This document shows positions 24,913 to 63,990 of a DNA stretch of 64,000 bases, in pieces. Under the pieces are notes generated by a model. The model was not told the origin of the DNA, searched no databases, and saw only the letters and a program-made list of their open reading frames with translations. Position 1 is the stretch's first letter; the number at the start of each line of letters is the position of its first letter. The position numbers were made by a program, and so were the translations under genes. Source of the DNA: a bacterium (GTDB taxonomy: Bacteria; DRYD01); the NCBI GenBank assembly GCA_039630415.1, contig JBCNVB010000013.1, forward strand, positions 64,001 through 128,000, in the 5' to 3' direction.

Positions 24913-24929
24913 TGTAAAAAAATTGTTAA
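24913..24929 (-). promoter_or_regulatory. Direct-repeat box TTAACA-ATTTT-TTTACA
   Basis: Plus strand TGTAAA(24913)-AAAAT-TGTTAA(24924), about 44 nt upstream of the 24869 start. Confidence 0.6.
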
Positions 24930-24941
24930 TTTTAGTAAAAA

Positions 24942-25937
24942 TTAAATTGTTATCTGTTGGTTTTTAGTTTCAAGGGTTAGGTATTTGCTCGATATTATGA
25001 TAATGTTTTGTGAAAGTTCATTGAGTTTATTTTTAAGGTTTTGTGGTAGATGTTTTATGAAATCTAGTTTTGCAAGGAAAACAAGCGAAGATTTTAGATC
25101 GTTTATTTTTACTGCTTGATCGGTATTAGTTATTGTTAATAGATTTATTTCTATATTTTGTGATAGTAAGTATTTGAGGAATGAGTTGATTTTTTCCACG
25201 AACTCTTCGTCTTCTTGTTCATCTACTGATATATTGTTTATTAGGAAGAAGAATTTAGGTGATATGAATTCAGCTTTTTCTTTTACCACTGGTTTTCCTA
25301 CTTTTGCCCATTGTTTCCAAAGTATTTTTTTGATATCATCAGTAGATACATATTCTCTTACTGCAAAGAAATCTCCTTCTTGGCTTATTTTATACATCAA
25401 ACTTATGTTCTGTTCAGGAGCGGTGTTTATAAGTTTATGGTAATTTATTTGTGAGAAGTTTGGGTAGATATAGAGGTTTGCTTTTATTTTTATTATTTTT
25501 GGTGATATAAGCTTGAAAAATAGATAACATTGCACTGCTATTTCGATATTTTCACTAAATCCTCTTTTGATTCCAATTAGATCTATTGATACTTCTTTAC
25601 TTTTTTTGGGTTTGATGTAAAATAGATTCACCTTGTTTTGTTGTTGAATTAAGTTATTAACTACTTCAATGTTTGCAAACAGGATGGGAAAGATTGATTG
25701 ATTAGATATATTAATTTTGAGATTTATCTTTTGTCCTTTGTAGATTTGTTTTGGTGTGAGTTGGTATTTATCTATTGATATTTTATTAGTTGTTGCTAGG
25801 GGGTAAATTAATGATATTAATAAGATACAGAACATTATGATGGAAAGTAGTAAAGTTAGAGGAGAACCAATATTTATAGATATTAGTAAACACAATGAAC
25901 TTAGAAAGGCAGATATTATGTACTCTCTATGTCCCAT
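24942..25937 (-). CDS. DUF58 family membrane protein
   Basis: Two N-terminal TMs; GDFFAVREYVSTDDIKKILWKQWAKVGKPVVKE. Confidence 0.82.
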   Translation of the reverse strand: MGHREYIISAFLSSLCLLISINIGSPLTLLLSIIMFCILLISLIYPLATTNKISIDKYQLTPKQIYKGQKINLKINISNQSIFPILFANIEVVNNLIQQQNKVNLFYIKPKKSKEVSIDLIGIKRGFSENIEIAVQCYLFFKLISPKIIKIKANLYIYPNFSQINYHKLINTAPEQNISLMYKISQEGDFFAVREYVSTDDIKKILWKQWAKVGKPVVKEKAEFISPKFFFLINNISVDEQEDEEFVEKINSFLKYLLSQNIEINLLTITNTDQAVKINDLKSSLVFLAKLDFIKHLPQNLKNKLNELSQNIIIISSKYLTLETKNQQITI

Positions 25938-25939
25938 TA

Positions 25940-26224
25940 TTATTTTTTGGCTGTGGTTTTTGTTTTTAGTGGAATTGAAGCTACTAGGGATACTCTCTTG
26001 TTATCCGCTTTGATTACGAAGTCCATTTCTTCTGTTTCTACATCATCTTTGTATTTCGATAGTAATTCTATGAGTTCTTCTTTTAATTTTTCTATTGTAG
26101 TATTTTTTTCTTGTGATCTGTCATGTACTATTACTAGTTGTAATCTTTCTTTGGCTATTTTGGATGATTTTTTTTGTTTTTTGAAGATATTAATAATTTC
26201 TTCTAACCATAGTGGAAGAGACAT
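25940..26224 (-). CDS. minE: Cell division topological specificity factor MinE
   Basis: SSKIAKERLQLVIVHDR...LVASIPL; follows minD. Confidence 0.93.
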   Translation of the reverse strand: MSLPLWLEEIINIFKKQKKSSKIAKERLQLVIVHDRSQEKNTTIEKLKEELIELLSKYKDDVETEEMDFVIKADNKRVSLVASIPLKTKTTAKK

Positions 26225-62920: not shown

Positions 62921-62937
62921 TTTTTATGCTAGAGATT

Positions 62938-63912
62938 CTACAATTCTTCAATGCTGTATACCTTTTCGCTTATTGATTTATCAAATCCTTTTCTTATCAG
63001 ATTTGATAATATTTTGTTTGGCATTAGTTCTAAGAATATGTTGGAGGGGTATTTTTGATTGATTTTTTCGATTGTAAGAATCCAATTTACGGGATTTATC
63101 ATTTGGTTTTTCATTTCTTGTTTTATTTGGTTTGGGTCAGTGAGATTTTGGGAGTTTATGTATAATTCCAACTTTGGGGAATTGAAGTTTACCTGGTCGA
63201 TATGTTTGGAGAGATAGTTATTAGCTTCTTGCATCATGTAGCTGTGGAATGCTCCTGATACTTTCAGAGGCAAAATTTTGATCGTCGGTATTTGTAACTT
63301 TATTTCTTTTTTTAGTTCTTCTGATTTTTCTACTGGACATGAGATTATGAGTTGGCTATAAGAATTGTAGTTTGCTATTGTTGAGTTATAGTTTTGTACT
63401 ATAGTTTGAAGTTTTTGAATTGTTTGTGGGTTAAAGTTATCTATGACTGCAAACATTGTTCCCTCTTTTGAATAGTTGTGCATAAAGTATCCTCTTTTTA
63501 CTACTAAATCTATACCTTGGTCTAATGTAAGTGATTGTGAGCATACTAGTGCTGAGTATTCCCCTAGACTATGTCCTGCTAGACAACTTATCTTATCACC
63601 AAGTATGTCTTTTATACATTCAAAGCATGATACTGAAACTGAAAAAATCAGTATCTGGCTATACAATGTGATGTTTATCTTTGATTCATCCTCTAGTAAA
63701 GATATTAGGTCGGTATCTATGTAGTCTTTGTATTGTGATTTTATTTTTTGATTGATATAGTCGAAAGTTTTTCTGTATATTGGGAACTGGTTGTACCAAT
63801 CCATTCCCATGGATTTATACTGGCTGGCTTGACCTGGAAAAAGTAGATTTATTTTTGTATTTTCAGTTATTTGCTTTATTTTGATTAGTTTATTTTCCAA
63901 CTGTTGTAGCAT
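62938..63912 (-). CDS. fabD: Malonyl-CoA:ACP transacylase
   Basis: LFPGQASQ, AGHSLGEY, ANYNS..QLIIS, LKVSGAFHS. Confidence 0.93.
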   Translation of the reverse strand: MLQQLENKLIKIKQITENTKINLLFPGQASQYKSMGMDWYNQFPIYRKTFDYINQKIKSQYKDYIDTDLISLLEDESKINITLYSQILIFSVSVSCFECIKDILGDKISCLAGHSLGEYSALVCSQSLTLDQGIDLVVKRGYFMHNYSKEGTMFAVIDNFNPQTIQKLQTIVQNYNSTIANYNSYSQLIISCPVEKSEELKKEIKLQIPTIKILPLKVSGAFHSYMMQEANNYLSKHIDQVNFNSPKLELYINSQNLTDPNQIKQEMKNQMINPVNWILTIEKINQKYPSNIFLELMPNKILSNLIRKGFDKSISEKVYSIEEL

Positions 63913-63951
63913 ATTTATATTATTCTTTTGGCTTTGAATTGAACCCTTTCA

Positions 63952-63990
63952 TTAACAAAATTTTTACATTTATTTAAACCAAAATTAACA
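63952..63990 (+). promoter_or_regulatory. Four-hexamer direct-repeat box followed by an RBS for a gene beyond the window
   Basis: TTAACA 63952, TTTACA 63963, TTAAAC 63974, TTAACA 63985 (exact 11-bp period), then TTTAGGAGAA. Confidence 0.7.

Follow-up and report, generated by a model that had tools for sequence, protein, structure and literature searches.

The PhoP box of Bacillus subtilis consists of TT(A/T/C)ACA repeats with a spacer of 5 ± 2 bp, lying on the coding strand of activated genes and on the non-coding strand of repressed ones, and in Caulobacter the flagellar class II genes, the fliF operon among them, are under the control of the OmpR-family regulator CtrA. The WalR/VicR (YycF) operator of Firmicutes is given as TGTWAH-N5-TGTWAH (PMC4168254), the CtrA box of Alphaproteobacteria as TTAA-N7-TTAAC (PMC3692519), and in Salmonella the PhoP box occurs both in direct and in reversed orientation, at defined distances from the -10 element (PMC3335776), in each case as stated in the sections of the source cited here. 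A direct-repeat box, TTWACA-N5-TTHACA, recurs in the DNA analyzed here, a 64-kb stretch called the window (G000:C5:64001-128000), and it is a conserved signal with a functionally coherent regulon, probably the operator of an OmpR/PhoB-family response regulator. The genome that holds the window (G000; 1,404,407 bp in 31 contigs, 32% G+C, 89% complete) is one that we take to be a hot-spring Calescibacteriota metagenome-assembled genome.

When both strands of the window were scanned the pattern occurred seven times, at 24913(-), 28562(-), 41630(-), 50383(+), 52694(+), 54981(+) and 63952(+), exactly where the original prediction had put it, against a chance expectation of 0.37; the maximum in 100 dinucleotide-preserving shuffles was 2 and none reached seven. 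The spacer, predicted to be usually T5, was T-rich in six of the seven boxes (the exception, 63952, has AAATT). All seven fell between longer open reading frames (ORFs), in keeping with the claim that the sites are intergenic; those at 28562 and 41630 lie inside short ORFs of 84 and 126 amino acids (aa) that are taken to be spurious. From box end to co-oriented start codon the distances were, in site order, 43, 72, 85, 56, 59, 57 and 75 nt, gene starts and intergenic classes here and below being those of our own crude ORF caller, by which about 91% of G000 is coding. The boxes at 50383 and 52694 had been flagged as not independent, and the genes downstream of them are indeed paralogues with 68% identity.

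Genome-wide, G000 held 36 matches to TTWACA-N5-TTHACA, 28 of them intergenic. A weight matrix built from 29 T-spacer sites, which it then scores in a test that is to that extent circular, returned at 12 bits or more 48 matches in 127,740 non-coding nt versus 9 in 1,276,667 coding nt. Within intergenic segments the same matrix found 44 matches at 12 bits, compared with 1.31 ± 1.12 (maximum 5) in 100 dinucleotide shuffles, and 30 at 16 bits, compared with 0.25. The enrichment over a shuffled background that had been anticipated was thus found, together with a lower frequency in coding sequence and an enrichment before a class of genes described below.

Conservation was followed in nine genomes of the same family, covering two genera, and in G010, the single genome of a sister family; these relatives are kin, and sites pooled from them include orthologues, so that pooled counts are non-independent and overstate independence. 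The strict pattern was enriched in all nine family genomes, at 12–40 matches per genome versus 3–24 for a reversed-pattern control (19 versus 3 in G000), and the box was kept before orthologues, so the check in related genomes that had been proposed came out in favor of the signal. A forward box precedes the orthologue of the window's beta-helix gene at 55055 in 8/8 genomes with upstream sequence, 57–109 nt from the ATG, and this where the orthologues are only 44–57% identical and the surrounding DNA is unalignable. An inverted box stands before fliF in 8/8 genomes with enough sequence, at 77–81 nt and in many cases extended by one or two further hexamers in the 11-nt register, and before flhB in nine of ten family genomes, G000 included; upstream of flhB, the spacer of the G009 copy is shorter by one base, and in G010 there is a weak, 8-bit inverted three-hexamer array. 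Among 60 box sites from G001, G003 and G005, 36 are followed within 250 nt, in the direction of the box, by an ORF that has a Shine-Dalgarno sequence; the products belong to families also seen in G000, being subtilases, clostripain-like peptidases, a VSPVYV-repeat secreted peptide and the beta-helix protein, along with orthologues of the window gene at 24243 and several orphans.

The box is a strict direct repeat. Same-strand TTWACA pairs numbered 32 at exactly 11 nt, versus 2 at 10 nt, 7 at 12 nt and 0–11 at every other distance from 6 to 60 nt, which bears out the OmpR/PhoB-family geometry originally proposed, and no inverted-repeat peak appeared among these pairs except the trivial self-overlap of TTAACA. 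Because all of the information sits in some 20 nt (tttTTWACA-TTTTT-TTTACA), with nothing in the flanks, the box is a short signal rather than part of a dispersed repeat. Spacer positions were T in 71–87 of 88 pooled sites. Extra hexamers in phase with the first two were seen in G000 at C23 44519/44508, C12 78676/78665 and C5 130509/130498 (four sites counted in that genome), and arrays of three to four hexamers in 11-nt steps precede fliF in G005, G006 and G007. About 1 kb of non-coding, very AT-rich DNA at G000:C18 ~85,390-86,440 carries several box-like hexamers and a perfect TTATCCACA, a DnaA-box sequence; this region may be the replication origin.

One box is used in two promoter architectures, and this is new here. 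In the first, which we call F-type, TTTACA-N5-TTTACA (also with TTWACA as first half) reads on the coding strand 43–92 nt before the ATG, and such boxes precede proteases, the beta-helix protein, flgB and orphans. In the second, R-type, the coding strand reads TGTWAA-N5-TGTAAA and a -10-like TATA(T/A)A follows 38–42 nt later, with a weak TTTAA-like -35 between the two; these precede fliF, flhB and orphans including the window gene at 28658. If transcription starts about 7 nt after the hexamer, the R-type box would span about -69 to -53, with its center near -61. Among 95 pooled boxes (37 from G000 and 58 from G001, G003 and G005) a -10-like hexamer lay 35–45 nt behind 37, versus 9–17 of the 95 in five equal-width control windows, while on the front side the count was 18 versus 10–18 in controls, with no peak; the relatives' sites alone gave 24/58. 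In G000 the element was present at 11 of 21 boxes with a divergent gene versus 2 of 16 without one (Fisher p = 0.017). The 37 boxes of at least 16 bits in that genome comprise 14 that are F-only, 8 that are R-only, 13 that are both, lying between divergent genes, and 2 without a gene within 200 nt, so co-orientation with the target, noted originally for five of six boxes, is not the rule. Strong boxes without a co-oriented gene each lie 69–116 nt upstream of a gene on the opposite strand.

For F-type genes a -10 downstream of the box was sought by per-position information, TAnnnT counts and a Gibbs sampler on 47 leaders, and none of these gave a positional signal. A forward-strand promoter upstream of the box was considered and rejected for the same genes, as the element there is the near-palindromic -10-like one of the R-type layout and occurs at only 1 of 14 F-only boxes. 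The F-type box probably overlaps the -35 region, judging from its position. As to housekeeping promoters, a profile around 92 TA[TG]AAT sites gave for the -35 only a weak GG at -18/-17. The commonest promoter-like dyad upstream of genes is AAGG-N17/18-(T)AGAAT (21 observed versus 2.7 expected), often with TG before the -10 and with examples upstream of tRNA genes at G000:C2 ~200(-), C4 ~27168(-) and C8 ~6144(+); we take it to resemble the sigma-H type (AGGA...GAAT) more than TTGACA-N17-TATAAT.

The genes behind the boxes had been described as of unknown function and as forming a regulon of lineage-specific genes. A conserved regulon with many members lacking a Pfam match is what was found, and to that extent the description is right; it is too narrow in that subtilases, clostripain-like peptidases, fliF, flhB, flgB-fliE-flgC and nucleases belong to the set, and in the window itself the genes at 50456, 51580 and 52770 carry HELGH and that at 55055 is modelled as a beta-helix. 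Fourteen of 31 co-oriented first genes scanned outside the window had no Pfam match. Others were three Peptidase_S8, three Peptidase_C11, two lysine-5,6-aminomutase alpha (behind weaker boxes), one each of NlpC/P60, endonuclease V, RidA and Exo_endo_phos nuclease, two with faint EF-hand matches and one with a faint rod-protein match, namely flgB, which heads flgB-fliE-flgC just past the window and has a forward box of 15.7 bits. The NlpC/P60 gene is the only cell-wall hydrolase gene with a box, a weak one of 14 bits. Inverted boxes precede fliF (YscJ_FliF), flhB (Bac_export_2), an HD_5 protein, orphans and an EF-hand protein paralogous to two forward targets. By eye, the proteases inspected have no N-terminal signal peptide and about four other targets have one.

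The HELGH proteins of the window are paralogues whose nearest Atlas clusters are thermolysin-like M4/M36 peptidases, a match we take as a lead only. Three tandem genes (window 50456-54977) hold four HExxH modules, with 65–68% identity to the first, and a fifth copy, 40% identical, is directly upstream of flgB (G000:C5:130546-131580); the array is a recent local expansion, relatives having only one or two copies. At the fifth paralogue only a 2-mismatch box was found, which is at chance level (14 matches in the locus versus 17.7 expected). The HExxH orthologue in G004 is R-type and the window paralogues are F-type, so one protein family can use both layouts. Among the box genes there is also a small secreted protein (G000:C16:16211-16567) with a signal peptide and many V-S-P-V-Y-V / VSISPVSIS repeats, and V-S-P-V-Y-V repeat proteins are kept across both genera (loci L210 and L226 in G001 and G003). 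The two lysine-5,6-aminomutase alpha paralogues (C8:1231-2793 and C3:68394-69944) each have a box of 16.6–17.2 bits lying upstream of an ordinary AAGG-N16-TAGAAT/TAAAAT promoter, which may link the fermentation of amino acids to the protease regulon.

G000 encodes four receiver-domain proteins, two of them with a Trans_reg_C winged-helix output. The first, the canonical family member of the two, on contig C8 (G000:C8:30108-30797, 229 aa, Trans_reg_C 108 bits), lies in an operon in the order tRNA synthetase, CheY-like receiver, unknown gene, regulator and histidine kinase, the kinase matching HATPase_c only. Its best models are YycF, MtrA, RpaB and PhoB, and the best solved matches of its DNA-binding domain are YycF, RegX3, VicR, WalR and MtrA. 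It is 82–94% identical within the family and 67% in G010, and its recognition helix, GDTRTVDVHxRRLR, is unchanged in 7/7 aligned sequences. The second, a divergent one on contig C6 (G000:C6:8442-9125), adjoins a 1,193-aa GAF/PAS histidine kinase, scores 23.1 for Trans_reg_C where the Pfam cut-off is 26.2, and is 44–64% identical in six aligned sequences (45–66% in the genome search). Its recognition region varies and in genus g2 is shortened by an 8-residue deletion, although the box there stays the same, and the protein was found in eight of nine family relatives, G001 being the one without a match, and not in G010. The C8 regulator is favored on the grounds that its recognition helix is invariant while the recognition region of the C6 protein varies and carries the deletion in g2, and that no C6 counterpart was found in G001 or G010; it is the best candidate reader of the box, its binding being predicted from sequence.

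The pattern as a whole is best explained, and we think probably correctly, by an operator of an OmpR/PhoB-family response regulator, with the C8 protein as candidate and with two mirror-image promoter layouts. The features expected of such an operator are present in a direct 11-nt repeat, an A/T-rich spacer, extra half-sites in phase and an encoded Trans_reg_C protein; in the PhoB–DNA structure the wing contacts the minor groove at an A/T-rich spacer. The regulator would bind the tandem half-sites on one helix face, two protomers head to tail, and more of them could join at promoters that have three or four hexamers in phase. At R-type promoters the box at about -69 to -53 would occupy the position of a class-I activator, and at F-type promoters, turned round and closer to the gene, it would probably lie over the -35 region. 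The claim that one response regulator controls the regulon gains from the conservation of the regulon and from there being only two winged-helix regulators; the identity of the bound protein, and whether it activates or represses in either layout, we infer.

Several observations weigh against this explanation. The -10-like element is nearly palindromic, TATAA[AT] counting 27 versus 18 by strand, so that strand is weakly resolved and its assignment rests mainly on the association with divergent genes, and the excess of F-only over R-only boxes (14 versus 8) is non-significant (p = 0.29). At F-type sites no core promoter was found on either side of the box. The regulator inventory covered receiver and Trans_reg_C proteins, so a factor of another DNA-binding family may read the box instead, and the C8 regulator falls below every NCBIfam equivalog cut-off (for YycF, 272.6 versus 340). 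Across the 22 regulator loci (11 + 11) no box of at least 13 bits came closer than 1.5 kb to the regulator gene, so autoregulation gives no hint. Among the sequencing runs listed for window 50300-56100 there was no RNA run, only a DNA run from which the assembly was probably made. Finally G010 has only one strict match and four loose-pattern boxes despite having the C8 regulator, in a genome that is 73% complete and about 44% G+C over six measured loci (41–45%).

How the box compares with the described systems depends on which feature is taken. Read on the other strand, it shares with WalR the direct-repeat hexamers and 5-bp spacer and fits the WalR consensus in 32 of 36 G000 matches, a fit that could partly reflect AT-richness and counts for less on that account; the other four matches, with TTCACA, fall outside. 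The C8 DNA-binding domain has YycF, VicR and WalR among its best matches, and the regulator is very highly conserved, like WalR itself. However, C8 is below the YycF cut-off, the adjacent kinase matches HATPase_c only, the organism is no Firmicute, the regulon is dominated by proteases, flagellar export genes and orphans and not by cell-wall hydrolases, and the T/A spacer tract is conserved here whereas the WalR spacer is not, going by the cited sections on that operator. Since the regulator is below cut-off, the kinase has HATPase_c alone and the regulon is not centered on hydrolases, membership in WalRK is not supported; the box behaves like an operator of the WalR/PhoP type but is not counted with those systems. 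Salmonella PhoP, as far as the cited sections describe it, offers a detailed parallel in promoter layout: one OmpR-family regulator, an 11-bp direct repeat, a few fixed combinations of orientation and distance, and architectures that go with gene sets. Its hexamer is (T/G)GTTTA, however, and its far-upstream boxes are reverse and usually paired with a second box, whereas here the boxes at -61 point towards the -10 read as TGTAAA and are mostly single, with start sites that are predicted. CtrA is of the OmpR family with an 11-bp register, and TTAACA-N5-TTAACA variants of the present box contain TTAA-N7-TTAAC; most boxes, however, are TTTACA without TTAA, the phylum is unrelated, and G000 has no CtrA orthologue (best CtrA-model score 65.9 versus 350, from the C6 protein). 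With B. subtilis PhoP the hexamer degeneracy and period agree as far as the consensus goes, and its use of strands would parallel F and R, but no phosphate-regulon genes were found among the targets and no pst or phoU lies beside the regulator.

An alternative that keeps the operator is that it is read by the C6 regulator or by a factor of another DNA-binding family, which we consider possible, if unlikely. The phyletic pattern of the C6 protein (eight of nine relatives, not found in G010) parallels that of box enrichment (nine of nine, with one strict match in G010), and neither a direct link nor an autoregulatory site connects C8 to the box. The pattern breaks down at G001, which has 21 strict boxes and in which the C6 protein was not found, and at G010, which keeps the inverted array before flhB without it; moreover, the box hexamers are the same in genera whose C6 recognition regions differ, one by the eight-residue deletion, and the subthreshold Trans_reg_C score of this protein counts on the same side.

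It is very unlikely that the box is instead a compact, -24/-12-like promoter of an alternative sigma factor firing in the TTTACA direction. Such a promoter would account for the many boxes co-oriented with a gene 43–92 nt downstream where no separate -10 was found, and besides the primary one G000 has three genes of the sigma-70 family, including that at 18652-19395(-) in the window. However, sigma domains recognize two elements that differ, and here both halves are one hexamer; further hexamers in phase do not fit a sigma promoter; and the inverted copies at fixed distance before fliF and flhB, which have a -10 of their own on the opposite flank, would send antisense transcripts into the preceding gene. 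No match to Sigma54_DBD was found in G000, itself 89% complete, which also counts against a sigma promoter. An operator is preferred over a sigma promoter because of the use of both orientations, where a promoter element would be strictly oriented, the identical halves and the in-phase extra hexamers. Two specific candidates were rejected: a sigma-54 promoter has GG and GC 10 bp apart and goes with an rpoN gene, and the box has no G and the genome no Sigma54_DBD match; a sigma-28/FliA promoter has the consensus TAAA-N15-GCCGATAA, nothing is conserved downstream of the box, and the best group-3 sigma scored 104.9 versus 189.6 for FliA_WhiG. The four sigma-70-family genes of G000 are a divergent primary one, a SigB/F/G-like, a SigH-like and the divergent one in the window. 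The primary sigma gene (C5:179929-180996), which follows dnaG, is very divergent, with no more than 22 bits for Sigma70_r2. The window ORF (248 aa, weak r2 and r4 matches, SigB/F/G-like 61 bits) shares an overlap with the beginning of a gene for a Ser/Thr protein kinase of eukaryotic type (Pkinase 186 bits; together 17682-19395(-)), and the two may be a sigma factor with a kinase partner.

We give even less credence to the idea that no dedicated factor is involved, the box being a curved-DNA or UP-like element contacted by the alpha subunit of RNA polymerase, or a signal in the 5'-leader RNA. The spacer is an A5-8/T5-8 tract, and the place of R-type boxes, upstream of the -35, is about that of UP elements. 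Yet the most informative positions are the ACA/TGT triplets and not the tract, the strict 11-nt register and use of both orientations do not fit UP elements, and the R-type box would be untranscribed, so an RNA signal cannot explain R-type promoters. That the boxes are a chance product of an AT-rich genome is practically negligible, since the 32% G+C and the occurrence of the exact 17-mer as singletons in many unrelated genomes among the matches listed are set against the excess over shuffles in the window and the intergenic segments, the reversed-pattern control in G000, and the retention of the box before orthologues with unalignable flanks.

Site by site, the operators proposed for the window fall into place as follows. 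The box at 24913..24929(-), reading TTAACAATTTTTTTACA on the coding strand, is F-type, 43 nt before the ATG of a 208-aa protein gene without Pfam match (24243..24869(-)), with neither a divergent gene nor a -10-like element behind it; in G005 a forward box likewise precedes the orthologue (locus L238), at 73 nt. The box at 28562..28578(-), + strand TGTTAAAAAAATGTAAA, lies in a divergent intergenic region, and the original assignment to the orphan at 28658, with the box inverted relative to it, holds: in that orientation it is R-type, with the -10-like TATATAAAT at 28616..28624(+), R-type spacing, 37 nt past the box and 34 nt before the ATG, and TTTTAA at the -35 position. That orphan (28658..29320(+)) is 220 aa without a Pfam match. 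What the description of this box as inverted did not cover is that it is also co-oriented with, and 72 nt before, a Lon N-terminal-domain gene (27860..28489(-)) followed by minC-minD-minE, a gene that it might regulate as well. At 41630..41646(-) an F-type box stands 85 nt before a gene (40813..41544(-)) for a 243-aa orphan with an Asn-rich N-terminus, a double hydrophobic stretch at its C-terminus and no Pfam match; the divergent gene valS begins 58 nt from the box on its other flank, and a -10-like element at R-type spacing is absent there.

On the forward strand, the F-type box at 50383..50399(+) is 56 nt before two tandem HExxH paralogues of 366 and 362 aa (50456-51553 and 51580-52665, within 50456..52668(+)). 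That at 52694..52710(+), likewise F-type and a duplicate of the 50383 promoter region, is 59 nt before a fused double-module paralogue of 735 aa (52770..54977(+)). The F-type box at 54981..54997(+) is 57 nt before the 190-aa target modelled in the Atlas as a right-handed beta-helix (55055..55627(+)). A weaker box with an A/T-mixed spacer (13.8 bits) is found at 63952..63968(+); the gene 75 nt downstream of it, for a Gln/Asn/Pro-rich orphan of 338 aa, begins 44 nt past the window end. Elsewhere in the window, at 3817-5614(+), glutamine amidotransferase (3817-4446) and SIS (4418-5614) ORFs overlap by 29 nt, so the separation of these domains, usually parts of a single GlmS protein, reflects either a frameshift or a genuinely split glmS.

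We add, speculatively and as an unlikely extension, that one nearly invariant WalR-like regulator might be, throughout this hot-spring lineage, the master switch of a flagellum-derived export machine and its cargo of proteases without signal peptides, with orientation encoding two outputs: it would activate fliF and flhB from about -61, whereas from the -35 region its effect on protease and cargo genes would be the opposite one or would come at a different time, giving sequential expression without a sigma-28/FlgM checkpoint. Flagellar genes of this lineage have been read as a sign of motility (Colman et al. 2016, PMC4791363), and in an Octopus Spring metatranscriptome fliF of a related Calescibacterium population was present at 2.0 and 0.67 transcripts per million in two samples (PMC11696919), according to the sections of these papers cited here. 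In the portions of the Calescibacteriota literature consulted, which were genome and ecology papers only, neither a description of the box or regulon nor a cultured member was found.

Almost nothing is known of gene regulation in Calescibacteriota, and what makes the present result interesting is the lineage it comes from, the link between flagellar-type export genes and proteases, and the clean pattern of two architectures. It gives the group a concrete regulon of about 40 promoters per genome, with a named candidate regulator and two defined layouts, and it assigns about 20 orphan genes per genome to one physiological program. The box ties flagellar type-III export genes to proteases without signal peptides, and this tie bears on whether the “flagellar” genes of these organisms serve secretion rather than motility.

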